From IMG/VR virus record IMGVR_UViG_3300045988_019785, positions 1-31,278 of that record: DNA of 31,278 bases; one strand, given 5' to 3'. Positions 1 through 31,278 of the stretch are shown here, piece by piece. A program made the translations under genes and the position numbers. The first letter of the stretch is position 1, and the number at the start of each line of letters is the position of its first letter. Below the pieces are notes generated by a model. That model ran no database searches. It had not been told where the DNA came from and was given only the letters and a program-made list of their open reading frames with translations. This DNA comes from a virus.

Positions 1-55
1 ATAGCGCTGCTGTGGCCTGGCTTGATGACAGCGCTGTCGAGGGTGACGCCGGCTC
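1..55. repeat. 55-bp exact terminal direct repeat (copy 1 of 2, identical to 31224..31278); closes a circular or circularly permuted 31,223-bp genome
   Basis: Compared by eye: atagcgctgctgtggcctggcttgatgacagcgctgtcgagggtgacgccggctc occurs at both window ends. The overlap lies inside one continuous ORF (the capsid gene), so it is an assembly or wrap overlap and not a biological terminal repeat. Confidence 0.95.
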
Positions 56-758
56 GACTGCTCAGGGCGCTAAGAAGAACAACATTCACTTCGTTAACCC
101 CAAGACCAACATTGAGGCACTGAAGAAGGTTACGGGTATCCTGGCATTCTCTGACGAAATGCTGGAGGATCATGCGTGGATGGCTTCGCACATTAACAAC
201 CGCGGCGTGTACCGCATCGCTGTAGCTGAGGAGAATCAGCTGCTGAATGGCTCTGGTCAGAATGGCCAGATTCAGGGTGTGCTGTCTAAGGCAGGCGTTA
301 TCTCTCGCGAGGTTGAGAAAACTGCTACTGTTCCTGAGTTTGGTGAGGCTGTGCTTGAGGGTGCGATGGACGTCCTTGAGCAGAGCGGTTTCCCGGCCGA
401 CGCTATCGTTCTCCACCCTCGTGACTATGCTGCTCAGCGTCTGGCTAAGGACAGCAACGGCCAGTACTTCGGTGGTGGCGCGTTCACTGGTGCGTACGGC
501 AACGGCCAGGTTCAGATTGTGCCTAGCTTGTGGGGCCTGAACACCGTTATCTCCCCGCGCATCCCCCAGGGCACTGCTCTGGTTGGTGCGTTCAAGGCTG
601 GCGGTATGCTTGTCCGTAAGGGCGGTGTCCGTATCGAGGCCACGAACTCACATGCGGACCTGTTCGTGTCCGACGTGACTGTGGTCCGTATGGAGATCCG
701 TGAGTTGCTGACCGTGACTCAGCCGAAAGCTTTCTGCAAGGTTTCTCGCAAGGCCTGA
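1..758 (+). CDS. Major capsid protein, C-terminal part (continues from 30797..31278 across the wrap; about 394 aa in total)
   Basis: The frame is continuous through the 55-bp overlap (...MTNSAAVAWLDDSAVEGDAGS...). The gene lies directly after the prohead protease. It has an N-terminal coiled-coil (delta-like) region followed by an HK97-fold-like body. Stop TGA at 756-758. Confidence 0.85.
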   Translation, partial: SAAVAWLDDSAVEGDAGSTAQGAKKNNIHFVNPKTNIEALKKVTGILAFSDEMLEDHAWMASHINNRGVYRIAVAEENQLLNGSGQNGQIQGVLSKAGVISREVEKTATVPEFGEAVLEGAMDVLEQSGFPADAIVLHPRDYAAQRLAKDSNGQYFGGGAFTGAYGNGQVQIVPSLWGLNTVISPRIPQGTALVGAFKAGGMLVRKGGVRIEATNSHADLFVSDVTVVRMEIRELLTVTQPKAFCKVSRKA

Positions 759-760
759 TC

Positions 761-1291
761 GTGGATCTTATTGGGGCTGATACTCTGGAAGCCCTAAGTA
801 AGGGGGTCATCAAAAAGGATGACCCCCTTACCCCTATTCTTATTAGGCAGGCTTCCGGACTTATTAGGGAATTCTGCGAATGGCATATCTACCCTTTGAT
901 CACTGAGACTAAGCGGATAGATCACAAGGGCGGACGCTTTATTAATCTGCCCACACTGATGCTTCAGGATGAGCCTACGATCGAGTATCTTGGTCATGAG
1001 CGTGTGGTTCAGGAATGGTCTGAAGCTGGTATGTGTAGGCTGAGTGATCCACTGCCTGCCGCTATGGGGGCTATTCAGGCTACGATGACTCATGGTTATA
1101 GTGAGCTGCCTGCTACTGTGGAGGTAGTTATGGCGTCTATTATTGTAGCTTCTAGGACTGCTCCGGTGGGTATTAATCAAGCTGCCGTGGGCTCAGTATC
1201 GAGTACGTTTGAAGTTCCTGGTGGGGGTATTCGATTGAGCGCTTATGCTAAGCGGGCACTCGATGGTTTTAGGTTGGTGTATCGTCCTTGA
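761..1291 (+). CDS. Head-tail connector/adaptor protein (gp6-like)
   Basis: 176-aa ORF with a GTG start 2 nt after the capsid stop. Its position immediately after the capsid gene and its N-terminal pattern (...ILIRQASGLIREFCEWHIYP...) are typical of head-tail adaptors. Its stop overlaps the next start (TTGA). Confidence 0.55.
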   Translation: MDLIGADTLEALSKGVIKKDDPLTPILIRQASGLIREFCEWHIYPLITETKRIDHKGGRFINLPTLMLQDEPTIEYLGHERVVQEWSEAGMCRLSDPLPAAMGAIQATMTHGYSELPATVEVVMASIIVASRTAPVGINQAAVGSVSSTFEVPGGGIRLSAYAKRALDGFRLVYRP

Positions 1292-1668
1292 GCTTTCCCT
1301 TTCTAACTAATGGTTATATCTGGGTGGCTCGACTTCAAGACAAGTACGATGACCGGGGTAATCTGATTCAAGATCAGGTAGCTAAGGAATTCACTATCCA
1401 GGGCTGCTCTATTCAGCAGCCTAGTGCTGCTGAGCTGTCTGGTGATAGGCAGGGTGACGGTCAGTGGACGTACACGGTGTATGCACCACTGACTGCATCC
1501 GTGCAGGCTAAGGACCTGGTCATCCTCAGCTGGGACCACAAAGGTACGCCGGGAGAATGGTTCAACAAGACCACACCTGTGTACAGAGTGTCAGGCGTTC
1601 CCGGTGTGTGGTCTTACGATTACCTAGGCCTTAGTCACCAGGTGATTAAGCTTGTGGCGGTGGACTGA
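1288..1668 (+). CDS. Head-closure / head-tail joining protein
   Basis: 126-aa ORF, translationally coupled on both sides (TTGA and TGATG overlaps). The call rests on position in the connector module only. Confidence 0.5.
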   Translation: MSFPFLTNGYIWVARLQDKYDDRGNLIQDQVAKEFTIQGCSIQQPSAAELSGDRQGDGQWTYTVYAPLTASVQAKDLVILSWDHKGTPGEWFNKTTPVYRVSGVPGVWSYDYLGLSHQVIKLVAVD

Positions 1669-1934
1669 TGCTTGAGAAGCTCGAATTCCACGATGAGGGA
1701 TTCCAGGAAATGCTTAAGTCATCTGAGGTTGCCTCAGTCCTGAACGATATGGCCCAGAAGATATGTGACCAGGCTAACGACAATGCTGGCCGTGATGACG
1801 CGTTTGAGTGGTCGGGCTATGTGGGCCAGACTCGGGCTAGGGCTACGGTGAGGCCGGCTAGCTTTTATGGGGCTAAGTCTGAGGCTGACAATAAGACACT
1901 GACTAGTGCGTTTGGGAGTTACACTCATGGGTAA
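1668..1934 (+). CDS. Hypothetical protein in the neck/connector module
   Basis: 88-aa ORF coupled to both neighbours. No motif recognised. Confidence 0.45.
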   Translation: MLEKLEFHDEGFQEMLKSSEVASVLNDMAQKICDQANDNAGRDDAFEWSGYVGQTRARATVRPASFYGAKSEADNKTLTSAFGSYTHG

Positions 1935-2346
1935 GTATGTAGCCGAGTTCCCTGACGCTGAGGCTGCCTGTATTATGGGGCTGCGGGCCCATCTACAGGG
2001 GGTACCTGTCAGGCAGCAGGCAGACAAACTAGGAACTCGACAGTGTGTGGTCAAGCTGACTAGTTCTGGTACCCGCTTAGATCCTCGTAGAGTGAGGGTC
2101 CAGCTTACCGTCACATGCTGGGGTAAGGACAACACTGATAGCACAGAAGCCTTTAACCTGGCAGCTAAATGTCTTAACTGGGTTGAAGAGAGACCCTATT
2201 ATGGGCATATGGGTAAATACCCTTGCTATAAAGTAGATATAGTTTCTTACCCTTATTATGACCCTGACAGTAGCCAGACGACTGGTGGCTCAGGGATCGC
2301 TCGATATTCTTTTACGTTCCGTATGATTCTAGCAGGAGTGAACTAA
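1927..2346 (+). CDS. Tail terminator / tail completion protein
   Basis: ATG at 1927 overlaps the upstream stop (ATGGGTAA). The ORF-track start at 1906 is a less likely upstream extension. The gene lies directly before the major tail gene. The pattern ...RVQLTVTCWG... resembles siphovirus tail terminators. Confidence 0.55.
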   Translation: MGKYVAEFPDAEAACIMGLRAHLQGVPVRQQADKLGTRQCVVKLTSSGTRLDPRRVRVQLTVTCWGKDNTDSTEAFNLAAKCLNWVEERPYYGHMGKYPCYKVDIVSYPYYDPDSSQTTGGSGIARYSFTFRMILAGVN

Positions 2347-2937
2347 ATGGCTGTAAATAACCGTAATGTGCTGGCAGGCCGTCCGGATCAGGCAGTGACT
2401 GGAGCTATCCTGTCCACTACTACTCTGGTGACTACTCTTCCCAGTGATCTGTATAATCTCGATCTAGGTACTCTTAAGATGACGGACTCGGGATATGTTA
2501 GTGATGCTGGCCTGACTCTGTCGGTTAAGCGTTCAACTAACGACATCAAGGACTGGTCTCAGTCTGTGGTTAAGAAGATCCTGAGTGAGTTCTCGGGTTC
2601 TATTAAGTGGTCTCACCTTGAGGTTTCTGAGGGCTCGGCGAAGAACTTCTTCGGTGAGAACAACGTCACGGTTACCCCGAAGACGACTTCTCAGGGTACT
2701 CGTCTGCTGATGAAGCTCCGCGCGGATGAGCTGCCACACAAGACCTGGTGCTTCCGTATGAAGGACGGCGACGCTAAGATCATCATCTGGGTTCCTGATG
2801 GCCAGATCACTGAGGCTGATGATATTACGTTCGCTGCTAGTGACGCCATCAAGCTGCCTGTGACTCTGACTTGCTACCCGGATGCCCAGGGTAACTCGTT
2901 GTACATCGCCACTGATGACGGGGTGACTGGGGCGTGA
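2347..2937 (+). CDS. Major tail protein
   Basis: 196 aa. Position is terminator, then this gene, then chaperones and tape measure. The N-terminus MAVNNRNVLAGRPDQAVTGAI... and the Ser/Thr-rich beta-type composition are typical of siphovirus tail tube proteins. Confidence 0.75.
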   Translation: MAVNNRNVLAGRPDQAVTGAILSTTTLVTTLPSDLYNLDLGTLKMTDSGYVSDAGLTLSVKRSTNDIKDWSQSVVKKILSEFSGSIKWSHLEVSEGSAKNFFGENNVTVTPKTTSQGTRLLMKLRADELPHKTWCFRMKDGDAKIIIWVPDGQITEADDITFAASDAIKLPVTLTCYPDAQGNSLYIATDDGVTGA

Positions 2938-3263
2938 GTAAGGTATTTCAGCTCGATGGCCCTAAGGCTACGGACAATTTTAAGTTCCGTATGCCGGGGT
3001 CTAAAGTCACTCATGAGTTGCCCTCGCTTCAGAAGCTGCCTGTGGGTATCCGCAAGCGTATGGGTGATCTAGCCGGGGCTATTCAGGCTCAGCAGGAGCG
3101 TGGTAAGAAGCCCACGTCCAAGCAGACTTCCGAATTGCTTGATTTCCAGCTTGATTTGCTTGAACACTATGTTCCGGGTATCACTAGTCAGCTGGACGAC
3201 GACATGTTTATGGCTCTTATGGAGGCGTGGAAAGAGCACTCTGAAATCAGCATGGGGGAATAA
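2934..3263 (+). CDS. Tail assembly chaperone (gpG-like)
   Basis: 109-aa acidic ORF immediately upstream of the tape measure gene. GTGA overlap with the major tail stop. It ends 2 codons after a G5 slippery run. Confidence 0.6.
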   Translation: MSKVFQLDGPKATDNFKFRMPGSKVTHELPSLQKLPVGIRKRMGDLAGAIQAQQERGKKPTSKQTSELLDFQLDLLEHYVPGITSQLDDDMFMALMEAWKEHSEISMGE

Positions 3264-3628
3264 TAGGGCTAGTGGGGGTGTGGCATAATCACCCACTAGC
3301 CCTAGAGCGTGAGCTCATTGGGCTAGGTTTGAGGTCCCGCCAGATAGGTTCGGATGAGCTTACCTGGCGGGACCTTCAGGCTATAGTCAGCCACGCTGAG
3401 CCAGGAGGGCCGCTGGCTAAGGATCTAGGCTATGTGTGGACCACAGACGGCTACATGCTAGCTAACATCTACGACGTCCTCGCTGGGGCCAACTGGCAGC
3501 GTGCTGGCAAGTCAAGTGAGCCTCCACCTAAGCCTATTCGAAGGCCAAATGAGATTAGGGATGATGAGCGTGCTTTCGGGTATGACCCCATCCCTCTAAG
3601 TGAATTCAATGATTGGTGGGATGCCTAA
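3245..3628 (+). CDS. -1 frame extension of the tail assembly chaperone (gpGT-like frameshift product, T part)
   Basis: The -1 frame relative to 2934..3263 is open from 3245 to 3628 and ends exactly at the tape measure ATG (TAATG). The G-run in ATG-GGG-GAA (3252-3260) lies just before the stop TAA at 3261-3263. The conserved G/GT arrangement of siphoviruses supports the call. Confidence 0.5.
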   Translation, partial: NQHGGIIGLVGVWHNHPLALERELIGLGLRSRQIGSDELTWRDLQAIVSHAEPGGPLAKDLGYVWTTDGYMLANIYDVLAGANWQRAGKSSEPPPKPIRRPNEIRDDERAFGYDPIPLSEFNDWWDA

Positions 3629-5982
3629 TGGCTTCTGTTGAGCTAGCTACAGGTTACTATCAGCTAGTGCCTTCAATGAAAGGCAACAAGGAAGCTATTG
3701 TAGGAGAAATCACTGGGGCTGTAAACGAGGGGTCCGATAAGGCTGGCAAAGAAGGTGGCGCAAGGCTGTCTACTAGGCTGGCTGAAGGGCTTAAAGGTAG
3801 CTCTCTTGCAGCCCTCGGTGCAGGTGTGGCCGCGGGTATAGGCGCTGCCCTCTACAAAGTTGGTGAGACTTTCGATGAGGTCACTGACACTATCCGCACT
3901 GGTACTGGCGCTACGGGTGAGGCTCTCGACGGACTAGTCGATGTTGCTAAGCGTGTGGGCTCTACTACTCCAGCTGAGTTCTCCAAGATTGCCCCTGTGG
4001 TTGCTGACTTGAATACCAGGCTAGGTCTGACTGGCGAGGACCTCGAGACTGTGGCTAAGCAGGTTCTTGAGGCTGGTCGGCTGCTCGGTCAGGATGTCGA
4101 TATCAGCAAGACTACAGCGGCGTTTAGTGCTTTTGGCCTTGAGGCTAAGCAGATTCCTGGAGCTATGGATGACTTGTTCAGGGTCAGCCAGGCTACTGGT
4201 TTAGGTTTCAATGACCTAGCCCAGAAAACCGCTCAGGCTGCTCCTACAATGAAGGCTCTTGGATTTGGGTTCCAAGACACAGCGGCAATGATCGGTGCCT
4301 TCGACAAGGCCGGGCTTAATTCAAGCCAGATCATGACCTCTATGACAAAGGGTCTTACTACTCTGGCTAAGTCCGGTGAGGAGCCTAAGGAAGCCTTCAA
4401 GCGAGTTACCGGTGAAATCAGTGGTTATATCCAGACAGGTAATGAAGCTGCTGCTCTTAAACTTGCTAGTAAGTTGTTTGGTACTAAGGGTGCTACCCAG
4501 TTTGTGGAGGCACTAAAGCAGGGCAAGATCGGTGCTGAGGACATGATGAAGTCCATCGGCGCTACTGATGACACTATTCTTGGTGTGGCCGGTGAGACGT
4601 CGGACTTCGCTGAGAAGTGGCAGATAGTTCAGAACAATGCTCAGCTCGCTCTAGAACCTCTAGGGTCTGCGGTGTTCAGTACTCTTGCTGACGTCTTGTC
4701 GGCTATGGCGCCTACTCTTCAGGATATAGGTAACTGGCTGAAAGAGAACACATGGGCGTTCGGAGCTCTGGGTGCGGCTATAGCAGGTATCCTGATCCCT
4801 GCCTTCGTTACGTGGGTGGCAGGTATCTGGGCGTCTACGGCAGCTCTTCTTGCCAGCCCCATCACGTGGATTGTGGTCGGTATAGCCGCTCTTGCTGCCG
4901 GACTTGTCCTCCTGATTGCTAACTGGCAGGCTGTATCTGACTTCATCGGTGGTGTGTGGAACGCTACTGTGGAGGGAGCTGGGCACCTGTGGGAAGACTT
5001 TGTCAGAGGCCTGACGGAGTTCGCTACGGGCATCGGCCAGTGGTTTATGGAAGGTCTAACCGGGGCTGGGCAGCAGATTGCTGAGTTCTTTGCTGGCCTA
5101 CCTCAGATGATCCTGGACGGCCTAGCCGCTCTGGGCGAGGTTACCTTGATGATTGTGGGCTTCTCTATAGGTATCTTCGCTGGTCTGATTGTGGGATTCG
5201 TACAATTCCTGGGGTACATTCCAGGGTGGCTCGCCTCTGTGGGTGAGTGGCTGATGTCGCTTCCTGGCAAGGTACTTGAGTGGCTTGCGGGACTTGGCCA
5301 GCTTGCTGGTAAGGCGGCTGAGTGGTTTGGCGGGTTCTTCCAGAGTATGGTCCGCAAGGGTGGCGAGATTATTGAGTGGGTTAAGCAACTGCCTGGAAAG
5401 ATCATTGGAGGTATAGCGTCACTGGCGTCGAGCCTCCCTCAGAAAGCGTCTGAGGCGTGGAACGGATTCCTCCGTAAGGCTCAGGAGCTAGGTGGCCAGG
5501 TTGCTGAATTCGCGCGCTCGCTGCCAGGTAAAATCACTGGGGCTCTTGGTGACCTAGGTAGCTTGCTGGTTAGGTCTGGTGGCGCTCTTGTGGATGGATT
5601 CTTGCGAGGTATCCAGGGAGCGTGGAACTCCCTTGTGGGCTGGGTCAAGCAGGGCATGGATTGGTTGCGTGGTCTGTGGCCTTTCTCCCCGGCTAAGTGG
5701 GGGCCTTTCTCGGGTAAGGGATATGTTACTCACTCTGGTAAAGCGATTATTCGAGATTTCGCTGATAGTCTTAAGAATGAGCAGCCTTATCTGCTTGATT
5801 CAGCTAAGAGTGTTATGGGTGACTTCCAGTCGAATTTCCAACCTAACCTGAACGGTGTTCAACCTGCTTATGCCGGAGCTAATGCTGGAGGTAATACCAG
5901 TAGGGTCAATGTCAACGCCTATAGCAGCGACCCATACGCTACTGCTGAGGAAGTTGCCCGGCAGCTTAGGAGATTGATGTGA
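3628..5982 (+). CDS. Tape measure protein
   Basis: About 784 aa, the largest structural ORF. It has an alpha-helical, Ala/Gly-rich N-terminus, a long hydrophobic central segment and a repetitive C-terminal half. ATG at 3628 overlaps the upstream stop, so the ORF-track start at 3613 is less likely. Confidence 0.9.
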   Translation: MASVELATGYYQLVPSMKGNKEAIVGEITGAVNEGSDKAGKEGGARLSTRLAEGLKGSSLAALGAGVAAGIGAALYKVGETFDEVTDTIRTGTGATGEALDGLVDVAKRVGSTTPAEFSKIAPVVADLNTRLGLTGEDLETVAKQVLEAGRLLGQDVDISKTTAAFSAFGLEAKQIPGAMDDLFRVSQATGLGFNDLAQKTAQAAPTMKALGFGFQDTAAMIGAFDKAGLNSSQIMTSMTKGLTTLAKSGEEPKEAFKRVTGEISGYIQTGNEAAALKLASKLFGTKGATQFVEALKQGKIGAEDMMKSIGATDDTILGVAGETSDFAEKWQIVQNNAQLALEPLGSAVFSTLADVLSAMAPTLQDIGNWLKENTWAFGALGAAIAGILIPAFVTWVAGIWASTAALLASPITWIVVGIAALAAGLVLLIANWQAVSDFIGGVWNATVEGAGHLWEDFVRGLTEFATGIGQWFMEGLTGAGQQIAEFFAGLPQMILDGLAALGEVTLMIVGFSIGIFAGLIVGFVQFLGYIPGWLASVGEWLMSLPGKVLEWLAGLGQLAGKAAEWFGGFFQSMVRKGGEIIEWVKQLPGKIIGGIASLASSLPQKASEAWNGFLRKAQELGGQVAEFARSLPGKITGALGDLGSLLVRSGGALVDGFLRGIQGAWNSLVGWVKQGMDWLRGLWPFSPAKWGPFSGKGYVTHSGKAIIRDFADSLKNEQPYLLDSAKSVMGDFQSNFQPNLNGVQPAYAGANAGGNTSRVNVNAYSSDPYATAEEVARQLRRLM

Positions 5983-6821
5983 AAGAAGTCACGTGGAATG
6001 GCCACGTGATCAACGGTGGGGACTGGGTTGTGAGTGAGTGCAAGCTCTTCGGCTCAGCCCCTGCCGTTGCGCAGAGTGGCCAGCGTGTGGGCTATGATGG
6101 TATATGGCGTACTAAGGCCTACCACGGTGCTAAGTCTGGCGCTATAAAGGGGTATTATGTAGGGCAGTCTCTTGAGGATGCCGAGGAGGCGATGGAGACC
6201 CTCCTAAGTGTGGCCTCAATTAACCCTACACCTCTGACTGTTAATACCCCGCGTGGGCCTAAGACAATGTACGTGGCCAGGGATAGTGCTCTTGATATAA
6301 CGTTCCTGGCTAATGGGTCAGCATTCGAGTGGGGAGCTACTCTGATAGCTCCTGACCCTGTGTGGTGGCGTGGAGGCCAGACTCCTGATGGCCAGATTGA
6401 TGACCAGTACACGGCTAAGCATAGGCTGTATCTACCCAATCTAACTGGCGGTATTAAGTTCCCTCTAAAATACCCTATATCTTTCTTGGAGTCGGGTAAC
6501 TATGGGTCGGTCACGGTAAGCTCTGGGTACCACAACAGGGTTAGCCTTAAGCTTTACGGGTATGTTCAGATACCGTCTGTGATCTTCTCTGGCCCTGGTG
6601 GTGCTGGCCGGCTGAGGTGGGACTTCACCCTACAGCAAGACGAGTGGTTAGACGTTGATTTGACTAACCGCACGTCACTTAGGCAGGGGCAATCTTCTGC
6701 TGCCCCTACTATAAGGGAATGGCCCACACTGGATCGAGGGGAACTGACGATTGGGTTCAGGTCTGATGTGTATTCCCCTACTGCTTACCTTGATGTAATT
6801 GTGAGACAGGTGACTATATAA
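5979..6821 (+). CDS. Distal tail protein (Dit-like minor tail protein)
   Basis: 280 aa, directly after the tape measure gene (ATGTGA overlap). The N-terminal pattern resembles the siphovirus tail (Dit) family. Confidence 0.6.
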   Translation: MKEVTWNGHVINGGDWVVSECKLFGSAPAVAQSGQRVGYDGIWRTKAYHGAKSGAIKGYYVGQSLEDAEEAMETLLSVASINPTPLTVNTPRGPKTMYVARDSALDITFLANGSAFEWGATLIAPDPVWWRGGQTPDGQIDDQYTAKHRLYLPNLTGGIKFPLKYPISFLESGNYGSVTVSSGYHNRVSLKLYGYVQIPSVIFSGPGGAGRLRWDFTLQQDEWLDVDLTNRTSLRQGQSSAAPTIREWPTLDRGELTIGFRSDVYSPTAYLDVIVRQVTI

Positions 6822-7711
6822 TGGCTCTCGATAATGTGCTACCTATTGGTGGTAATGTTTCAGTGAATGCCGCTGAATTCAGGCGGCTCGATGTGGGCTC
6901 TACTATGGTCCACGATACCCACCCTCTGGCGTGTAGGCCTGGTGTTACCTCTGGTATGACACCTAGCCTCAATGGCAGTCAGATTCGCGTCAGCTCTGGC
7001 ACGGCTATTGTGACCCCTGTGGCCTCGAATAACGGTAGCTACAGGGTGTCTAACGTTGATGATGTTAGCTTGCCGCTGTATGCTAAGGACACGTCGTACC
7101 CGCGTACTGATATTCTGGTGCTAAAAGTGTATGACGGTACTGTGGACGGCTCTAACAAGTACCAGGCCTCGTTCGAAATGATTAAGGGTACAGCGTCGGC
7201 TAGTTTCCCTACGCCAGCTACTCCGTCTGGTGCGCTGCTTATAGCACGCATTATTGTGTCTACTACGGGTAGCCCTACGCTTTACGATGCTAGGCAGTAT
7301 ACCTGTGCGGTGGGCGGCACTATCCCGTGCTATTCGAATAGCCGGCCCACTACGTGGTTCCTTCAGAAGGGCCAGCGCATCTATGAACTGGACACCAACA
7401 AGGTCATGCTGTGGACTGGCAGTTCGTGGCGTGAGGATACTGTGATTCCTCAGGTTACTCTTCCCCGTATCCCTGCTATCGCGTCGGGTACAGTGACTGC
7501 TAGCTCGGCCGGACCTGCTGTGTTTACTATCCAGTTCCCTCCGGGGCGTTTCTCGAGTGCACCGCGTGTTGTGGCCTCGGTTAGGTCCGCTTCTGGAGAC
7601 TTCACTTGGGATACACCTAAACCATATAATGTAACTGCGACACAATTTCAGATGTTCGTTAAGAATGGCCGGGGTTGTGACTTCGACTGGATAGCGGTAG
7701 AGAACGGCTAA
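6821..7711 (+). CDS. Minor tail protein
   Basis: 296 aa with TAATG coupling on both sides. Ser/Thr/Val-rich beta composition within the tail-tip module. Confidence 0.55.
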   Translation: MALDNVLPIGGNVSVNAAEFRRLDVGSTMVHDTHPLACRPGVTSGMTPSLNGSQIRVSSGTAIVTPVASNNGSYRVSNVDDVSLPLYAKDTSYPRTDILVLKVYDGTVDGSNKYQASFEMIKGTASASFPTPATPSGALLIARIIVSTTGSPTLYDARQYTCAVGGTIPCYSNSRPTTWFLQKGQRIYELDTNKVMLWTGSSWREDTVIPQVTLPRIPAIASGTVTASSAGPAVFTIQFPPGRFSSAPRVVASVRSASGDFTWDTPKPYNVTATQFQMFVKNGRGCDFDWIAVENG

Positions 7712-8775
7712 TGATAACATGGCATTCATTTGCCGCTCTTGACGGCAGGCCTCTTACTGAACTGCCAGGGCTGTCAGTGAAGTCTAGCCTGTCATCCATC
7801 ATTGGGCGGGGAGATTCCGTGACTGTGAGCCTCCCCGTCTGTGATAGGTGGCCAGCTAACTGGCGTGACGGTACTCAGCCTATGCGAGCTGTCCTGGCAG
7901 CTATAGAAGACAACATTGTCCTGTGGGCTGGCTGGGTAGAGAAGCGCTCATACGGGTCAGGTGAGGCCATGGAGCTGACTCTACAGCCTGCCGAGGAGTG
8001 GCTGAAGCGCAACTATATCCCTGAACTGGTTTTCAGGGACCAACGGTATACCACGATCGCTAGAGGAATAGGTCTAGACCGCCTGGTAGCTCAGTTTAAT
8101 GGGCGTCTGGACGAGGATCCTACCCTTGATTGGGGTGATAGGACGTACCGTGCTGACCAGGATATGACATGTCTGGCCGGTCTCCAGAACCTCATGAAGA
8201 CTAGGCATGGTGCTGAGTTCGCTACATCGTGGGAATTGCACGAGAACGGTCACCTCGGCATTGTGGTCCACACCGCGTATAGGCTTGGCGGTGTAGGTAA
8301 GGACACTGCTGGTGCTGCTGTGCTGTCTCAAGGTAGCTGGCAGCAGGTTGAGGACTGCTCTGACGGTAAAGGAGCCACTATCTGGCGTGTGGTCTCGAAT
8401 AGATCTGGGGATGAGCGCAAGGAATTCGCTACATCTAATGGTCAGGTCCTGCAATACGGCTGGCTAGAGCTCGAGAGACGCTGGACTCCTGACACAGGGT
8501 CAGTGGATGATGCTGTGCTACAGCAGTATATGTACGCGGCTAAGGAGAGCCAGTCCTACGGGCTGACGTCTATTAGTGTGGAGACTACGTTGGGCCACTT
8601 TATGCCAGGCCGTGACTTCGTTCTAGGTGACTATGTTGATGTTGACATGACTAATCTTAGTAACCCTGAGCTGCAATTCAAAGGTAAAGCCAGGGTTATC
8701 GGGTGGGTATGTGATCCTGACCCTGTATCTGGTGAGATCACTAAGATTAAACCAATGCTTTCATTGGAGGATTGA
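7711..8775 (+). CDS. Minor tail protein (Tal-like baseplate hub N-terminal type)
   Basis: 354 aa. The N-terminal pattern (MITWHSFAALDGRPLTELPGLSVKSSLSSIIGRGDSVTVSLPV...IVLWAGWVE) resembles actinophage Tal/gp27-like tail proteins. Confidence 0.5.
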   Translation: MITWHSFAALDGRPLTELPGLSVKSSLSSIIGRGDSVTVSLPVCDRWPANWRDGTQPMRAVLAAIEDNIVLWAGWVEKRSYGSGEAMELTLQPAEEWLKRNYIPELVFRDQRYTTIARGIGLDRLVAQFNGRLDEDPTLDWGDRTYRADQDMTCLAGLQNLMKTRHGAEFATSWELHENGHLGIVVHTAYRLGGVGKDTAGAAVLSQGSWQQVEDCSDGKGATIWRVVSNRSGDERKEFATSNGQVLQYGWLELERRWTPDTGSVDDAVLQQYMYAAKESQSYGLTSISVETTLGHFMPGRDFVLGDYVDVDMTNLSNPELQFKGKARVIGWVCDPDPVSGEITKIKPMLSLED

Positions 8776-9392
8776 TGAGTTTCGACCCAACAACGGTCGA
8801 TAGGCCGTCTAATGACCAGGGTATTAGGGAGGTAGTTAACCGCCTAGAGGGTCTCGAGAGCCGCATTAACGAGCTTACAGCCACTATTGGCGGTGAAGGG
8901 GCGGTGTATAATCGCTCTCTGTTCCACGTTAAGGGGCATGCTAAGTTTGATGGCACCCTCGAGATCGCTGAAGGTCTGATTGGTGACAAGGCACTCAAGT
9001 CTCAGATCAGCGTTGATTCTGGTAATTCGAGGAATCTTGACTGGTCTCCGGTTACTAGCTGGACCACAGGGGTGTCTACGTTCGTTGTGGCCCCATCGTG
9101 GGCTACTAAAGCGCTGGTCATAGCGGGCGGTTCCATCATGCCTAACTACGACGCTAACGCTGGCACCCCTGCATGCTGGGGCAGAGTCGAATGTAGGGGT
9201 CAGTATAGCCCTGATTTCTTGTCTTTCTTGGGGTCATCGGCTATCCCATCCAATATTTCGTGGCCATTCTTTACTGTACCTGATCCACGTGAGGGGGGGA
9301 TTGAGGTTAATTGCCAGGCTAAGTTGTATAGCGGTAGCTCTAATAGAGGCGGACGCTGTTTCGTGTCCGCTGTTGTACTGTGGTTGAGGTGA
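8772..9392 (+). CDS. Minor tail protein, candidate receptor-binding/fibre protein
   Basis: 206 aa. It has a short N-terminal coiled coil (RLEGLESRINELTATIGG) followed by a beta-rich C-terminal domain. It is the last gene of the tail module. Confidence 0.4.
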   Translation: MMSFDPTTVDRPSNDQGIREVVNRLEGLESRINELTATIGGEGAVYNRSLFHVKGHAKFDGTLEIAEGLIGDKALKSQISVDSGNSRNLDWSPVTSWTTGVSTFVVAPSWATKALVIAGGSIMPNYDANAGTPACWGRVECRGQYSPDFLSFLGSSAIPSNISWPFFTVPDPREGGIEVNCQAKLYSGSSNRGGRCFVSAVVLWLR

Positions 9393-9393
9393 T

Positions 9394-9831
9394 ATGTTGA
9401 GCCCTGAGACTATGGGTAGCCTTATTGGGGCTATCCTAGCGGGTATTTTAGCGGTAGGTTATAGCGGAGTTAAAGTCTATAAGGCTATGTCTGGGTCGCT
9501 TAAGAGGATAAAAGACCTTACTGCTGACCTGAAAGCTGATACTGAAGCATTAGTTTTTGACAAAACTGACGCTGAAGGCAACACAGTTCAGGATAAGTTG
9601 AATATTCTACTTAAGCAAGCTGACAAGACTAACACGGATTTAGAGATTCTGTCGTCTACAACGGCGGAAATTAAGGGGGTACTAAACCGGCATGATAAGG
9701 AGATCGGCCGGTTTAATGACAATATCACCCAGATTAATGATCGTGTGTCCAATACCGAGCGCATGTTGACTTCTAGGTTAGAAGAACATGGCCAGCGTCT
9801 GCTGGCTGTGGAGACAAGGAAGGAGGGTTAA
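9394..9831 (+). CDS. Membrane-anchored coiled-coil protein (lysis-associated? function unknown)
   Basis: 145 aa. It has an N-terminal TM helix (SLIGAILAGILAVGYSG) and then a long heptad-like coiled coil. Its stop overlaps the endolysin start (TAATG). The segment looks AT-richer than its neighbours by eye. Confidence 0.55.
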   Translation: MLSPETMGSLIGAILAGILAVGYSGVKVYKAMSGSLKRIKDLTADLKADTEALVFDKTDAEGNTVQDKLNILLKQADKTNTDLEILSSTTAEIKGVLNRHDKEIGRFNDNITQINDRVSNTERMLTSRLEEHGQRLLAVETRKEG

Positions 9832-10685
9832 TGGGATACGTATCTGTGGGCCCTAAGTATAACGGCCAGGAAGCTTATGCTGCTGAGATTCCAGCTAAGT
9901 GGTACAAGCTATTCAAGCGCTATATGGCTAAGTATCACCCGGATATCTCGATTATCCTGATCCAGGCTAAGGGAGGCGCAGCTGCGAGTGCAGGAACGCA
10001 CAGCGATGGCTGGGCGTTCGACTTCCAGAACTGGCACCTGACGTCTAAGCAGAACGAGATTCTGGTAGCTGAGTCACGTAGGTTCGGAGGTGTGGCTTGG
10101 GCTAGGTATAGGAGTCAGGGTTTCGAACCCCATGACCATGTGGCTTGTGATTCTGGTGGTAGTTCTGACACTGCCTGCCAGTACCAGGTTGTTGCTGCTC
10201 ATGCTGGGTACAATGGCCTAGGCTACCGAGGCCGTAAGGCCTCTGATAATCACCCCGCACCTGCCAGGTGGGTTACATGTGCCCAGGGTATAGGCATGCT
10301 GGAAGCTATCCTGGGTGGATTCAAGACAAACGAGGAAGGACCAACATTGGACAAGAGCGAACTGATTCAGGCTGTACGTGAAGGCGTTGGCGGACTCAAC
10401 TGGGGTAACGAGACGTTCGGTGCGTACCTCGGACGTATGCAGGCTGCTTGCCAGACTGCTGCGTACTACGCCCACCAGGCTGCTACTCAGACTGCACCCA
10501 TCACCCGGCCTGGCGACCCGTCTGCTGACAGCCGTGGGCAGGTTGTGATCCGCCAGGAGATCGCTGACGCTAAAACTCGCATCACTGCGGTGCAGGCTCA
10601 GATGGAGGAACTGCGCAACTCTATCTCAGTTCTGGCTGATCTGGTGCGAGGCCTGGCTCCTCGGGATCCCGGAGTCACTGCCTGA
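9831..10685 (+). CDS. Endolysin, LAS/peptidase M15-type zinc peptidase N-terminal domain
   Basis: The motif H-x2-G-x-A-x-D (THSDGWAFD) plus a downstream HDH (EPHDHVA) matches the M15/VanY-like metallopeptidase signature. The gene sits in a lysis cassette upstream of the holin. Confidence 0.75.
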   Translation: MGYVSVGPKYNGQEAYAAEIPAKWYKLFKRYMAKYHPDISIILIQAKGGAAASAGTHSDGWAFDFQNWHLTSKQNEILVAESRRFGGVAWARYRSQGFEPHDHVACDSGGSSDTACQYQVVAAHAGYNGLGYRGRKASDNHPAPARWVTCAQGIGMLEAILGGFKTNEEGPTLDKSELIQAVREGVGGLNWGNETFGAYLGRMQAACQTAAYYAHQAATQTAPITRPGDPSADSRGQVVIRQEIADAKTRITAVQAQMEELRNSISVLADLVRGLAPRDPGVTA

Positions 10686-10704
10686 TAGCCTGAAAGGAGG
10701 TGTG

Positions 10705-10731
10705 GTCCCCTGGTAGATAGTATCAGGGGAC
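10705..10731 (+). promoter_or_regulatory. Intergenic hairpin between the endolysin and GH16-like genes (8-bp stem, 11-nt loop)
   Basis: gtcccctg (10705-10712) pairs with caggggac (10724-10731). The 5' arm overlaps a GTGTGGTC copy (10700-10707) that directly follows AAGGAGG. No U-tract follows, so it is not a classical terminator. Confidence 0.4.
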
Positions 10732-10740
10732 TCTCCCCCA

Positions 10741-11448
10741 ATGAAAGACTACTTGAAAAAGAAACCACTATATGACTACAGGTCATACGGTGGGTGGGGT
10801 ATACAGCGTCCTGAGCACGGTACTCTAGGTCGCTTCGACCCGGCCATGACTAAGCTACTACCAGACGGCCGCACGTTCGAACTTAAGATGCAGTTCGACC
10901 GTCCAGCATACCTCATGTATACAGAGGCGGGGGCCACACACGAGAAGGCGCTGCATAACTCGCTGAGGTGTGGTTCATGGGCAAGCTTGTACAACGTCAA
11001 GGGTGAAGGCTACTGGTCCATGTGGGTCAAGAACCCACCCTCCTGGACGACTGAAATGGTAGCTATGCTGTGGCCCGAGGAAGACTCTAGGTGGCCTGAG
11101 GGCGAGATCAACTTCATGGAGACCCAGTCGGACAAGACCAAGACTCAGTTGAATCTCCACTGGCCCTCACCTAAGGACAGCTCTCCACAGCACTGGCCTG
11201 TGACGATCGACCTCGACACGCGCCAGTGGCACAAGTACGGGGTGCGTATCTACCCTGACTGTATACGGTGGTTTGTAGACGACAAGATGGTGAGGCACCT
11301 AGACACAGAGTTCTCACCCTACAATACCCGCCTGCACTTCGCTGTGCAGTGCGGTGTGAATCAGAACTTCGGGGTGATGTGGCACAAGGACATCGCCTGG
11401 GAAGAGAACATGTACATCATCCCTGAGAGAGCCCCAGGGATACTGTAG
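10741..11448 (+). CDS. GH16-like / concanavalin-A-like glucanase-fold protein in the lysis cassette
   Basis: MLWPEEDSRWPEGEINFME matches the GH16 W-P-x-GEIDIxE catalytic strand, with Asn replacing the middle Asp. The downstream WHKYGVRIYPDCIRWFVDDKMV matches the GH16 pattern 'H.Y...W.p..i.w.vD'. Confidence 0.6.
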   Translation: MKDYLKKKPLYDYRSYGGWGIQRPEHGTLGRFDPAMTKLLPDGRTFELKMQFDRPAYLMYTEAGATHEKALHNSLRCGSWASLYNVKGEGYWSMWVKNPPSWTTEMVAMLWPEEDSRWPEGEINFMETQSDKTKTQLNLHWPSPKDSSPQHWPVTIDLDTRQWHKYGVRIYPDCIRWFVDDKMVRHLDTEFSPYNTRLHFAVQCGVNQNFGVMWHKDIAWEENMYIIPERAPGIL

Positions 11449-11459
11449 TTAGGAGACAC

Positions 11460-11765
11460 ATGGATATTACTACGCTCGCCACTGTACCGGCTATGCTCGC
11501 TATTGTCGAGCTTCTGAAGCGCATCGGCCTGCCGGCTAAGGCCGCTATGCCGGTTACTGTGGTCCTGTCCGTTGCTCTGGGCCTTGCTCAGACTTTCCTT
11601 GGAGGTGATCCTGTCTACCAGGCTGCCGCTAAGTACCTGCTGATGGGTCTCGGTGCGTGTGGCCTCTACGATGCAGCTAAGATTGCATCCCCTACCGTGG
11701 AGCAGAAGAACGAGTTGAACACCACTGTCCCTCGTCGTGCTGAGGCTCCTGAGGTGACTGCCTGA
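11460..11765 (+). CDS. Holin
   Basis: 101 aa with 2-3 hydrophobic helices (TLATVPAMLAIVELL, VTVVLSVALGLAQTFL, LLMGLGACGLY) and a charged C-terminus. RBS-like AGGAG 6-7 nt upstream. It is the last gene before the terminator, next to the lysins. Confidence 0.65.
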   Translation: MDITTLATVPAMLAIVELLKRIGLPAKAAMPVTVVLSVALGLAQTFLGGDPVYQAAAKYLLMGLGACGLYDAAKIASPTVEQKNELNTTVPRRAEAPEVTA

Positions 11766-23764: not shown

Positions 23765-23777
23765 TAGGCCGTAAATC
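23765..23777. repeat. 13-bp perfect inverted repeat, left copy (TAGGCCGTAAATC), partner at 24080-24092
   Basis: The reverse complement of 23765-23777 equals 24080-24092. The pair brackets the zinc-ribbon gene and its promoter, a 328-bp unit. Confidence 0.8.
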
Positions 23778-24027
23778 AGCGTTGCGTCCAGCTCTCAGGG
23801 ATACTCCTGGCCTTGCTCCAGACACCCTCACGCTGTGCCATGCCCTTAGCCTCCAGCTCAGCTGGGGTCAGGCACCTACGTCGGTCCGGCCCCTCAGTCA
23901 CCCCGTGCAGGCTCGTACGATGCATGTCTCCCGCAGTGGTACCCCCGAACGTCTCGTGGCACACGGGGCAGTGCTCGTAGCTGCGTTTGATGATGTTCTT
24001 CTTGCAGTTTCTGCATGTCCAAGTCAT
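23776..24027 (-). CDS. Zinc-ribbon protein (FDxHR-family-like putative zinc-binding protein)
   Basis: MTWTCRNCKKNIIKRSYEHCPVCHETFGGTTAGDMHRT...RRCLTPAELEAKGM shows CxxC...CxxCH...(F)DxHR...C..P, as in the actinophage FDxHR family. ATG 24027 is preferred. The ORF-track TTG 24063 is actually the -35 box TTGACG. Confidence 0.6.
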   Translation of the reverse strand: MTWTCRNCKKNIIKRSYEHCPVCHETFGGTTAGDMHRTSLHGVTEGPDRRRCLTPAELEAKGMAQREGVWSKARSIPESWTQR

Positions 24028-24034
24028 GTGACCT

Positions 24035-24063
24035 ACCTTAGCACGGGCTAGAGACCCCGTCAA
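24035..24063 (-). promoter_or_regulatory. Sigma70-type promoter (minus strand): TTGACG-17 bp-TAAGGT, start codon 7 nt downstream (leaderless mRNA)
   Basis: -35 TTGACG (24063-24058), 17-bp spacer, -10 TAAGGT (24040-24035), then 7 nt (aggtcac) to ATG 24027. There is no room for an RBS. Confidence 0.7.
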
Positions 24064-24557: not shown

Positions 24558-24563
24558 GGACCC

Positions 24564-24592
24564 ACCCTAGCACGGGACCACACACCGGACAA
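24564..24592 (-). promoter_or_regulatory. Sigma70-type promoter (minus strand): TTGTCC-17 bp-TAGGGT, start codon 6 nt downstream (leaderless mRNA)
   Basis: -35 TTGTCC (24592-24587), 17-bp spacer containing GTGTGGTC (24583-24576 on the minus strand), -10 TAGGGT (24569-24564), then gggtcc and ATG 24557. It shares CCCGTGC-TA(A/G)GGT with promoter 24035-24063. Confidence 0.7.
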
Positions 24593-24608
24593 GTCCCGCC
24601 CTGTGGTT

Positions 24609-24636
24609 CCCTCCCCCCTTAACCCCCCACCCTCCC
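24609..24636 (-). repeat. G-run tract on the minus strand (C-runs on the plus strand), G-quadruplex-prone
   Basis: Plus strand ccctccccccttaaccccccaccctccc has C-runs of 3, 6, 6, 3 and 3. Confidence 0.6.
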
Positions 24637-24643
24637 GCGCGCA

Positions 24644-24682
24644 CGTAGCACGCGGGCGTAGCACGCGGGCGTAGCGCTACGC
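24644..24682. repeat. 13-bp tandem repeat (CGTAGCACGCGGG x2.6) ending in a 14-bp perfect palindrome GCGTAGCGCTACGC
   Basis: Units at 24644-24656 and 24657-24669, with a partial third unit. Palindrome at 24669-24682. Flanked by alternating (CG)n stretches (24636-24642 and 24691-24700). Confidence 0.85.
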
Positions 24683-24713
24683 GTGCATGACGCGCGCGCG
24701 TACGAGGCCGGGA

Positions 24714-24759
24714 CCCCTTCCCCGCCTTCCCCCCAAACCCCCCTATCCACCCTAACCCC
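24714..24759 (-). repeat. Second G-run tract on the minus strand, G-quadruplex-prone
   Basis: Plus strand ccccttccccgccttccccccaaacccccctatccaccctaacccc has C-runs of 4, 4, 6, 6, 3 and 4. Confidence 0.6.
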
Positions 24760-24807
24760 TGAGAGTCTCTCTCTGGCGTTTACGCCTGAGAGAGAGACTC
24801 TCAGGGG
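24756..24807. repeat. Large perfect hairpin/cruciform 1 (19-bp stem plus an apical 4-bp GGCG/CGCC mini-stem)
   Basis: 24756-24774 (cccctgagagtctctctct) pairs perfectly with 24789-24807. The apex GGCGTTTACGCC lies at 24775-24786. Confidence 0.9.
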
Positions 24808-24810
24808 GAG

Positions 24811-24868
24811 TTAGTTAGTTATATATTTCTCTCTTTAGAGGGGGTATGGGGGAGACCTTTCTCTCTTT
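24811..24868. repeat. AT-rich island (ttagttagttatatatt) plus two copies of TTTCTCTCTTT between the two big hairpins
   Basis: TTTCTCTCTTT occurs at 24826-24836 and 24858-24868. This is the only strongly AT-rich stretch in a very GC-rich region of about 1 kb, so it is a candidate DNA-unwinding element. Confidence 0.6.
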
Positions 24869-24892
24869 GTGGGCGTCCTGACCGCTCAGCGC

Positions 24893-24979
24893 CCCGCCGT
24901 GTGAGCCCTCGGTCCAGGGGGCCCCGGGGCCCCAGGCGTAAACGCCGGGCCCCGGCCCTGGACCGAGGGACACGGCGGG
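24893..24979. repeat. Large imperfect hairpin/cruciform 2 (10 + 14 + 9 bp stems plus an apical GGCG/CGCC mini-stem)
   Basis: Pairings: 24893-24902 with 24970-24979, 24906-24919 with 24956-24969, and 24924-24932 with 24947-24955. The apex GGCGTAAACGCC (24935-24946) is the reverse complement of the apex of hairpin 1. Confidence 0.85.
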
Positions 24980-25191
24980 CAGGCACACACCGGGGATTGG
25001 CTTCAGCACGTCTGGCCGATCTGAGGAGGTGTGTGGTCTAGCACTTGGGGCAGTAGAAGCCAGGATGCCTCTGAGAGCCCCAGGAAGGCGCCTAGGAGGG
25101 CCTAGCAGGGTCGGGGTGGCACTGGAGTACCCCCAGACGATTTGAGGCCGTCTGAGGCGAGATACTGAAGCTCTCAGGAGGTGTTGCAGGG

Positions 25192-25506
25192 TTGCGGGGA
25201 GTGTGCTACCATGAGGTCATGGAGTTTCCACGAGAGATTGTTAAGCGAGTTGTCGAGGTGCCGGGGTGGGATGACATACCAGCGCTACCTTGCGCACAAC
25301 GGCTGGAAGAGGCTGGCATGGTCCACGAGGACCAAAGCAAGACCACACGCCTGAGGTACCGGGCGCGGCTTGCGGACTATCCGGTGGAGTCGTATGAGGC
25401 GAGGGCGATCTCACAGGCAGTGCCGACGTACGGCACACGTGTGGTCCAGCTGGAGAGTGTGATCGAGCTTGGGGTGATCTGGGTGAAGGTGACCGTGGCA
25501 TGGTGA
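25192..25506 (+). CDS. Hypothetical protein (104 aa); start uncertain
   Basis: AGGAGG (25176-25181) lies 10 nt before TTG 25192. Alternative in-frame starts are GTG 25201 and ATG 25219. The codon pattern looks coding, but I found no promoter upstream and the region is GC-rich, where spurious ORFs are common. Confidence 0.45.
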   Translation: MRGVCYHEVMEFPREIVKRVVEVPGWDDIPALPCAQRLEEAGMVHEDQSKTTRLRYRARLADYPVESYEARAISQAVPTYGTRVVQLESVIELGVIWVKVTVAW

Positions 25507-25518
25507 CGGCGTGTCGAG

Positions 25519-25547
25519 TTGACATGCTAGGGGGTACCTGCTAGGGT
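25519..25547 (+). promoter_or_regulatory. Sigma70-type promoter (plus strand): TTGACA-17 bp-TAGGGT, candidate promoter of the packaging/late operon
   Basis: Perfect -35 TTGACA (25519-25524), 17-bp spacer (25525-25541) and -10 TAGGGT (25542-25547), the same -10 as the early promoter at 24564. A leader of about 155 nt follows before the HNH ATG. Confidence 0.65.
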
Positions 25548-25692
25548 GTATACCAGGGTAGAAGATATACCCTGGGTACTGGTTTGGAGTACCCCCTGGA
25601 TTGGAACCCCGGGGGTACTCGGGTAAGGTACCCCAGGGGGTGCAGGAATAGCCCCCTGGGGTATACCCCGGTAGGTACCCCCGTAGTACCCC
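25529..25692. repeat. Dense array of GGGGTAC / GTACCCC heptamers and related palindromes (iteron-like)
   Basis: GGGGTAC at 25531 and 25612. GTACCCC at 25589, 25628, 25675 and 25686. GGGGTATACCCC palindrome at 25658-25669. CCAGGGTA-N7-TACCCTGG at 25553-25575. Confidence 0.85.
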
Positions 25693-25708
25693 TGGTAGGA
25701 CGTGTAGG

Positions 25709-26092
25709 ATGCCATATTCAGCCCCTGAGCGATGCTGGTGCGGAGAGCTAGGTTTGCCAGGCACAGCGTTGTGCCTGGCCCACACACCGACAAAGTCTGG
25801 ATGGGAATTGCGTCCAACTGCTTGGCTAGAAGTAGATAACAAAACTAGGTACAAATGGCAGAAGTTAAGGAAAAGATTCTTGAAACAGAATCCTTACTGT
25901 AATTTGTGCGGAATGATTGCAACAGAAGTTGATCACATTCAAGGAATTAAAATAATAAAGAACAAAATAAAAATTCTAGATGAAAATGAATTGCAATCGT
26001 TATGTCATGAATGTCATTCTAAGAAAACAAGGGAAGCGTCTAGAAAATCACGAATGCTCAATCAAAATGCGCGCCGGGGTAACTCTCCGTGA
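25709..26092 (+). CDS. HNH endonuclease (terminase-associated type)
   Basis: N-terminal Cys/His cluster (CWCGELGLPGTALCLAH), then ...YKWQKLRKRFLKQNPYCNLCGMIATEVDHIQG...LQSLCHECHSKKT, the HNH/ββα-Me motif. It lies immediately upstream of terS/terL, as in HK97-type cos phages. Confidence 0.85.
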   Translation: MPYSAPERCWCGELGLPGTALCLAHTPTKSGWELRPTAWLEVDNKTRYKWQKLRKRFLKQNPYCNLCGMIATEVDHIQGIKIIKNKIKILDENELQSLCHECHSKKTREASRKSRMLNQNARRGNSP

Positions 26093-30800: not shown

Positions 30801-31278
30801 GCGGGATTGAGGCACTGAAAGTTAAGGCTGCTGAGATCAAGGGCCGGCTGAAGGCAGTCGAAGAGTCAGGGGTTGTAGGTAAAGATACCGAATCTCTGGT
30901 CGAAGAGTATAAGTCAACTATTGCTAAGATCAAGTCCTTCGAGTCGAATGAAGGCGCGGTTAATGAACTGAAAGGAAATTCTGTGGCGGTTGCTGGTGAG
31001 GCTAAGTCCCTGGGTGCGCACTTTGTTAAGCACTTCGGTCCTGAGCTTGCTCGGGTTAAGGGCCGTGACAATTTCTCGGTGAATGGTCCCGAGTTCAAGG
31101 GTGCTGAGGATTGGCACCTGACTTGGGACAGCCTGATCGGTTTTGATACCGATTACGATAAGGCCGCGCATTACGCCCAGCCTCCGCTGTATGTTGGCGA
31201 CCTGTTTGCACAGGGCATGACTAATAGCGCTGCTGTGGCCTGGCTTGATGACAGCGCTGTCGAGGGTGACGCCGGCTC
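30797..31278 (+). CDS. Major capsid protein, N-terminal part (runs off the window end and continues at 1..758)
   Basis: GTG 30797 overlaps the protease stop (GTGA), with AAGGGG upstream. Coiled-coil N-terminus (SGIEALKVKAAEIKGRLKAVEE...) like an HK97 delta domain. No separate scaffold gene is present. Confidence 0.85.
   Translation, partial: MSGIEALKVKAAEIKGRLKAVEESGVVGKDTESLVEEYKSTIAKIKSFESNEGAVNELKGNSVAVAGEAKSLGAHFVKHFGPELARVKGRDNFSVNGPEFKGAEDWHLTWDSLIGFDTDYDKAAHYAQPPLYVGDLFAQGMTNSAAVAWLDDSAVEGDAG
31224..31278. repeat. 55-bp exact terminal direct repeat (copy 2 of 2, identical to 1..55)
   Basis: See the feature at 1..55. Confidence 0.95.

Follow-up and report, generated by a model that had tools for sequence, protein, structure and literature searches.

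In the plasmid RSF1010, RepC opens oriV at the iterons, RepA unwinds the DNA and RepB' primes on two exposed 40-nt hairpin sites that lie on complementary strands (PMC8567376; PMC6925257). In phage G4 and related ssDNA phages, a stable hairpin in the single-stranded DNA marks the start site of the primase (PMC13037366). The oriV of an IncQ1 (RSF1010-type) plasmid, which was found via published oriV primers, was read directly. Here ssiA (639-678, minus strand) and ssiB (751-790, plus strand) point their 5' ends at each other, with 84 nt between the bases of the two hairpins; next to them are stretches rich in AT and in GC and 3.5 copies of a 22-bp iteron. Mitochondrial CSBII and ColE1 represent another kind of origin, in which priming depends on transcription and a G-quadruplex. 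The gene-free region described here belongs to a phage genome and resembles the IncQ oriV in outline. We consider that there is about an even chance of its being the replication origin of the phage, working by a logic like that of RSF1010 oriV, with a fused primase-helicase priming on two hairpins.

The window is the whole stretch of 31,278 nucleotides of IMG/VR record IMGVR_UViG_3300045988_019785. Its two ends (1-55 and 31224-31278) form an exact 55-bp direct repeat, an assembler overlap, and because these terminal bases are identical the window represents a complete genome of ~31,223 bp, assembled as a circle. It is the genome (~31.2 kb) of a lytic actinophage; neither an integrase nor a repressor was found in it, and the nearest cultured phages, with protein identities of 30-48%, have Arthrobacter, Gordonia and Microbacterium hosts. 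The genes form two divergent arms. The plus arm runs from 25219 through a 95-aa gene, HNH, terS, terL, portal and protease genes, and wraps round to the structural and lysis genes (12-11765). The minus arm, from 24557 down to 11941, is the replication module and codes for a SNF2-type helicase, PolA, a PD-(D/E)XK exonuclease, Sak4, an Hjc-like nuclease, the primase-helicase, thymidylate synthase and dCMP deaminase. The ~600-bp region between the arms is the largest non-coding stretch of the genome. The cumulative GC skew reaches its minimum here and the local skew changes from -0.7 to +0.5 at hairpin 1, although this signal is confounded with gene orientation. When searched by blastn in near and distant modes, the region gave no match in 50,697 phage records. 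A protelomerase or telomere reading was rejected, as no ORF of fitting size or family was found.

Table 1. Positions of the features of the region and of the related elements elsewhere in the window
Feature	Position	Strand	Remarks
Primase-helicase, 535 aa	13023-14630	minus	RepB'-like AEP primase and helix bundle (~1-255) fused to RepA-like helicase (~280-535)
Promoter of gene A (126 aa; first gene of the replication arm)	24558-24592	minus	-35 TTGTCC 24587-24592; 17-bp spacer; -10 TAGGGT 24564-24569
11-mer GGTGTGTGGTC	24576-24586	minus	Inverted partner of the copy at 25028-25038; the pair brackets the whole region
C-tract 1	24609-24636	minus (G-runs, G4 motif)	Conserved in all relatives
CG-rich alternating stretch	24636-24711	none	Holds the tandem repeat and the palindrome; iteron-like; unit varies by clade
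13-bp tandem repeat CGTAGCACGCGGG	24644-24675		2.5 copies; TRF, 100% match
Perfect 14-bp palindrome GCGTAGCGCTACGC	24669-24682		Tandem repeat runs into it
C-tract 2	24714-24759	minus	Second G4-prone tract; largely missing from the L003 clade
Hairpin 1	24756-24807	minus	Arms 24756-24774 and 24789-24807; 19/19 bp plus 4 apical pairs
AT-rich core and spacer (proposed unwinding element)	24808-24892	none	85 nt between the hairpins; contains TTAGTTAGTTATATATT; 24818-24868 nearly invariant
Hairpin 2	24893-24979	plus	38 pairs in blocks of 11+14+9+4; unpaired bases all on the 5' arm
Conserved non-coding block	25028-25181	plus	Begins with GGTGTGTGGTC; core GGGCCTAGCAGGGTC..TGGCACTGGAGTACCCCCAG
Promoter of gene B (95 aa)	25184-25218	plus	-35 TTGCAG 25184-25189; -10 TACCAT 25207-25212
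Inferred cohesive end CGCCGGGGT	26072-26080	none	9 nt, in the last codons at the 3' end of the HNH gene, just upstream of terS

An earlier note, made from the letters alone, had listed C-tracts, a repeat, a palindrome, two hairpins, an AT patch and a pair of TTTCTCTCTTT in this region, and every one of these elements is present where it had been placed (Table 1). The perfect 19-bp stem of hairpin 1 was confirmed, as was the lack of relation between the two stems, the apex alone being common to both. Some of the counts required correction: the tandem repeat has 2.5 copies rather than 2.6, hairpin 2 has 38 pairs rather than 37, and the tip shared in opposite orientation is a 14-mer (24775-24788 and 24933-24946, 100% complementary) rather than a 13-mer. 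Hairpin 1 has the loop TTTA on the plus strand (24779-24782), so that its minus-strand apex reads CA-GGCG-TAAA-CGCC, and hairpin 2 presents the same apex on the plus strand (24933-24946). The AT patch lies at 24811-24827 with TTTCTCTCTTT at 24826 and 24858; the GC content is 0.35 in the 40-nt window 24810-24849, against 0.75-0.85 on both sides. CGCGCG runs flank the tandem repeat and the palindrome. The only canonical G4 motifs of the whole 31-kb window are at 24615-24636 and 24740-24759, both on the minus strand, which in the case of C-tract 1 is the outward-reading strand relative to the AT core. A single 7/9 match to the DnaA box, CTATCCACC at 24743-24751, was dismissed as it is absent from one clade. 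When folded as DNA, hairpin 1 gave z = -8.5 and hairpin 2 z = -8.0, equally on both strands, and none of 200 shuffles on either strand folded as well; the CG-repeat stretch (z = -0.15) and the AT core (z = -0.73) showed no excess folding by themselves.

Both flanking genes are served by promoters of one kind, with a -35 TTGNNN, a 17-bp spacer and a -10 TANNNT after GTGC, the start codon following six bases on. Gene A (ATG at 24557) and gene B (ATG at 25219) are leaderless, a layout typical of actinobacteria, and the motif (C/T)GTGCTANNNT-N6-ATG is kept in all relatives. The same layout is seen again at 24045/24027 and 13020/13003. Between the two edge promoters, neither a leaderless-type promoter motif nor a sigma-70-like site nor a GCTANNNT promoter was found. 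As the outward promoters are confined to the edges of the region, the ~590 bp between them is not a divergent promoter. The name 'divergent promoter region' fits only the outer ~35 bp on each side. Leaderless genes number at least four (24557, 24027, 25219, 13003) and have (C/T)GTG(C/G)TANNNT six or seven bases ahead of the start codon. For the ORF at 23776-24063, the TTG start in the annotation is probably wrong, and ATG 24027 gives a protein of 83 aa.

The region was compared with that of relatives, as the earlier note had proposed. The region occurs at 72-93% identity in ~25 IMG/VR contigs of ~31 kb, several of them from Human Microbiome Project samples, and a search with gene A gave 214 protein clusters at 90% identity and dozens of ~31-kb contigs. 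The phages in which it is conserved are a common, uncultured actinobacterial family. The C-tracts, the CG-rich short tandem repeats, hairpin 1, the 35%-GC core and hairpin 2 make up a layout common to the ~25 contigs. In the alignment the near-invariant parts are the AT core (24818-24868), both hairpin tips, C-tract 1 and the 150-nt block at 25028-25181. The earlier claim of no convincing ORF in ~600 bp holds, because indels among relatives change the frame. The tandem repeats are more variable, with clade-specific units of 11-13 bp in 1.9-3.4 copies, and were undetected in L017, L178, L003 and L013.

The hairpins show a different kind of conservation. Their apex, CAGGCGTAAACGCC, is invariant and always has the same reading on the strand outward from the AT core, whereas their stems differ completely between three clades and yet fold in every version. 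Pairing was counted from per-sequence folds in place of alignment-based covariation by RNAalifold, the counts of which understate pairing because the arms of different clades misalign. The 25 distinct versions, of 13-44 bp, contain 562 Watson-Crick pairs against 12 G.T pairs (12/574), and with TAAA taken as the loop every unpaired base is in the 5' arm. All 14 genomes agree in orientation, the left loop being TTTA and the right loop TAAA on the plus strand, and a third copy present in two relatives is on the right in the same orientation. Judged from these patterns of sequence change, the hairpins are under selection as structures. A scan of IMG/VR with the 14-mer apex gave at least 119 unrelated chance matches and was uninformative.

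A sister clade (locus L156), in which the primase is 48% identical, has unrelated stems with the same TTTA and TAAA loops: the left hairpin is GCACTACCCCCC-TTTA-GGGGGGTAGTGC and the right one GGGGCTCGGGCC-TAAA-GGCCCGGCCCC. The order in this clade is C-tract, CG stretch, hairpin, AT palindrome, CG stretch, G-tract and hairpin. Taken together with that of the window, this layout indicates a shared design that is two-fold symmetric about an AT-rich centre, with the G-runs and the TAAA loops on the outward-reading strand. Microbacterium phage Koji has the same replication module with a homologous primase-helicase (31% identity), and the equivalent intergenic region is without paired hairpins. The loci of more distant primase homologues (L157, L158, L174, L176) stop before the start of the replication arm, and the comparison of origins covers the remaining ones.

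The proposed reader of the hairpins is the 535-aa primase-helicase, the best solved relatives of which are RepA and RepB' of RSF1010. A profile of 26 homologues searched against the PDB had RepA (1g8y) at the top (E 4.6e-14) and RepB' (3h20) as the only primase match (E 2.2e-5). The AF2 model (pLDDT 86) consists of an alpha/beta domain, a helix bundle and a RecA-fold domain; it superimposes on RepA (1nlf/1olo) with TM 0.73-0.74 and rmsd 3.4-3.7 A, and Foldseek matches it over 302 columns to full-length RepB' (3h20), with E 1.9e-8. Many homologues contain PF16793 and PF13481; in the protein of the window PF16793 scores 21.6 bits, just below the cut-off of 24.3. Primase motif II has a Gln, a trait of RepB'-like primases. 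Homologues occur in 352 phage records of Microbacterium, Gordonia and Mycobacterium phages (e.g. NC_042118.1 gp31), and many are labelled 'RecA-like DNA recombinase' or 'DNA recombinase', which looks like under-annotation.

The likeness to the IncQ oriV extends from the enzymes to the DNA. The phage encodes homologues of both RepB' and RepA, and it has two hairpins with a common recognition element, the 14-mer, which lie on complementary strands and face each other with their 5' ends. Direct repeats and stretches rich in AT or in GC accompany them within a few hundred bp. Between the phage hairpins there are 85 nt as against 84, and the geometry is the same if the strand bearing TAAA is the strand that is read; the agreement in spacing may be a coincidence, since the spacing varies among relatives. 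There are also differences. In the phage the primase and the helicase are fused in one protein, PolA is supplied by the phage itself, and no homologue of RepC was found, the proteins of the replication arm giving no match to a RepC-like initiator in Pfam or PHROGs, though a non-homologous initiator may exist. The repeats are of 11-13 bp in two to three copies and not of 22 bp in 3.5 copies, and they fall short of the 20-22 bp of IncQ iterons. The AT-rich element is between the hairpins, whereas in IncQ it is beside them, and G4-prone tracts are a feature of the phage. RepB' recognises its 21-nt hairpin by the base and the 5' tail, whereas the phage hairpins are 52-110 nt long and conserved at the apex. 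Their flanks share nothing with each other or with ssiA/ssiB, and neither the 5' CCTTTC tail nor the GTG start triplet 3' of the hairpin that characterise ssiA/ssiB was found in them. Given the lack of RepC, the short and variable repeats, the conservation of the tip and the lack of similarity to ssi, the region is like an IncQ oriV in outline and not a member of the group by sequence or by the full list of parts.

The other two systems are more remote. As in phage G4, a stable hairpin in single-stranded DNA would serve as the mark for the start of the primase; the G4 system, however, uses the host DnaG on SSB-coated viral ssDNA and one site, and not an AEP-type primase on two opposed sites of a dsDNA phage. 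The G-runs on the non-template (outward) strand beside the presumed start recall CSBII and ColE1, a likeness that comes from general knowledge and is a lead only. Unlike these origins, the phage has a dedicated primase and no promoter was found upstream of its G-runs.

The anatomy and its conservation, the two-fold geometry and the enzyme's homology are all observed, and from them we infer that replication could be initiated in the following manner. The 35%-GC core would melt, probably with the aid of supercoil-driven extrusion of both long palindromes, and the G-runs on the outward-reading strands may also be helpful in melting. The helicase part of the RepB'-RepA-like fusion would be loaded on each strand and travel outward in the 5'->3' direction. 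The strand being tracked would fold into a hairpin, with the same apex on either side (CA bulge, GGCG/CGCC stem, TAAA loop); the primase part would recognise the structure of this apex and lay a primer, which PolA of the phage would extend back over the core. In turn, each of the two first primers would grow into the leading strand of one of the opposite forks. An initiator may bind to the short CG-rich tandem repeats, or the fusion protein itself may do so.

The earlier note had named four candidate roles (an origin, a packaging structure, a regulator platform and structured RNAs) without choosing between them, and of these the replication origin is the best supported. It is favoured because the region is the largest gene-free stretch, lies between the outward promoters of two arms and coincides with the minimum of cumulative GC skew; because an AT-rich core in a very GC-rich setting is accompanied by direct repeats and by the only G4 motifs of the genome; because the hairpins appear to be selected as structures and the sister clade keeps the layout; because a RepB'-like primase fused to a RepA-like helicase is encoded and the RSF1010-type oriV, where RepB' primes on two opposed hairpins, has its hairpins in the same geometry; and because an internal promoter motif is lacking and cos is elsewhere. 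Several observations count against it. No RepC-like initiator was found, and gene A is a poor candidate for one, as its all-helical model (pLDDT 92) has a best Foldseek match of E = 2 and no match in the PDB. The tandem repeats are short, clade-specific, limited to two or three copies and below detection in four relatives. RepB' reads the tail and base of its hairpin while the apex alone is conserved here, and Koji has a homologous primase-helicase but no such hairpins in the equivalent region. The GC skew is confounded with gene orientation, and the conserved 150-nt block is left unexplained by the origin model.

The origin could also be one that is specified by structure and needs no initiator. 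Cruciforms next to the AT core and G-quadruplexes on the outward strands would then open the DNA, and the fused RepB'-RepA protein would read the bulged apex with its TAAA tetraloop. We regard this form of the model as rather doubtful.

The hairpins could also act as RNA. According to this explanation, promoters in the AT core would fire both ways, the transcripts would begin with a hairpin tipped by GGCG-UAAA-CGCC, a phage protein or RNase III would read the tip for antitermination, processing or stabilisation, and the conserved block would be a small RNA or a leader. The outward two-fold orientation does give the same RNA apex on both sides. The block is another point in its favour: its equivalents, of ~150 nt, are found in three phage clades (25028-25181 in the window, 544-694 in L156, 467-637 in L180), a covariance model detects it at 84 bits in the sister clade and weakly (17 bits, E 0.006) in the third phage group, it has a few compensatory pairs, and it always points outward, even in the sister clade where it is inverted and on the opposite side of the hairpins. 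The covariation term of the block, however, is ~0; it could be an RNA or a protein-binding site. Its reading as a coding sequence was rejected, as a 1-nt indel puts its 40 most conserved nt into another frame. That structured leaders may be in use in this phage is indicated by a promoter-plus-hairpins element nearby (25520-25700), which has GGAGTACCCCCWG in common with the block. Against an RNA role, no sigma-70-type or GCTANNNT promoter occurs inside the region, and both flanking genes have leaderless promoters of their own. The proportion of G.T pairs is unusual for RNA stems, and neither hairpin is followed by a T-run on either strand, the scan for intrinsic terminators giving only a trivial 7-bp site. 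Rfam 15 gave 0 matches at the gathering threshold, and below it only generic miRNA-like hairpins (17-33 bits against thresholds of 60-230). Near-pure Watson-Crick stems with neither an internal promoter nor U-tracts favour a DNA hairpin or cruciform over RNA, and we consider an RNA function rather unlikely.

The nearby element just mentioned occupies a second gene-free stretch, 25507-25708. It has a canonical promoter, TTGACA(25520)-N17-TAGGGT(25543), and ~150 nt downstream of it that are almost invariant in 14 relatives. It contains three strong hairpins with TACCCC/GGGGTA arms, the hexamer being present in 8 copies in 160 bp, and had no match in Rfam. It may be a leader or ncRNA of the HNH-terS-terL operon, or a protein-binding array.

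A regulatory platform at the DNA level is less probable again, and we hold it to be distinctly unlikely. Here a dimeric regulator would bind GGCG-N4-CGCC, either as duplex or on extruded cruciforms, together with GGTGTGTGGTC sites, and would set the early/late balance of the divergent arms. In its favour, the invariant apex is nearly a palindrome, stems with Watson-Crick pairs only are compatible with a structure to which both strands contribute, and GGTGTGTGGTC not only brackets the region but also sits in the spacer of the gene A promoter. Binding to a duplex, however, would not need 20-44 bp of covarying stem, the hairpins are 200-300 bp away from either promoter, and no DNA-binding regulator was found beside the region. 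With regard to GGTGTGTGGTC itself, there are 4 exact copies genome-wide (1603, 24576, 25028 and 26217), and 55 matches, where 11 are expected, if as many as 2 mismatches are allowed, 38/53 being oriented with transcription. Conceivable explanations are a site for a protein, a Chi-like signal and an effect of codon use.

The packaging or cos-associated role can be set aside as highly improbable, since cos is ~900 bp away from the region. It had been suggested by the HNH-terS-terL module, which is within 1.5 kb, and by the many contigs of relatives that stop inside the region. Of the 22 mapped contig termini, 13 (nine contigs) fall within it (equivalent positions in L002, L007, L010, L014, L015, L018, L020, L022-L025, L031 and L032), but they are spread over 400 bp (24599-25002) at the C-tracts, the hairpins and the AT core, and are probably assembly or coverage breaks caused by these sequence structures, and less probably a real DNA end or a fragile site. 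Consistent ends lie elsewhere: four contigs end at the equivalents of 26071, 26072, 26072 and 26080, flanking CGCCGGGGT, and two more, making six in all, end 160-170 nt past a start at CGCCGGGGT and have terminal overlaps. The earlier suggestion of a packaging or cos-associated structure was therefore not supported.

The origins of actinobacteriophages are almost unmapped. If the origin really is free of an initiator, no IncQ-style origin primed at hairpins would have been described in a tailed phage before it, and its primase would be reading the tip of a hairpin and not its base. If the hairpins are priming sites, they would offer a phage AEP primase a DNA substrate that is defined and open to testing, and the region would show how cruciform and G4 elements can form part of an origin. 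Tests by comparison and by coverage are feasible, given how abundant the family is in public metagenomes. A homologous primase-helicase is widespread in phages of Microbacterium, Gordonia and Mycobacterium, and priming on these hairpins would thus link a large group of phages to the IncQ mode of replication.
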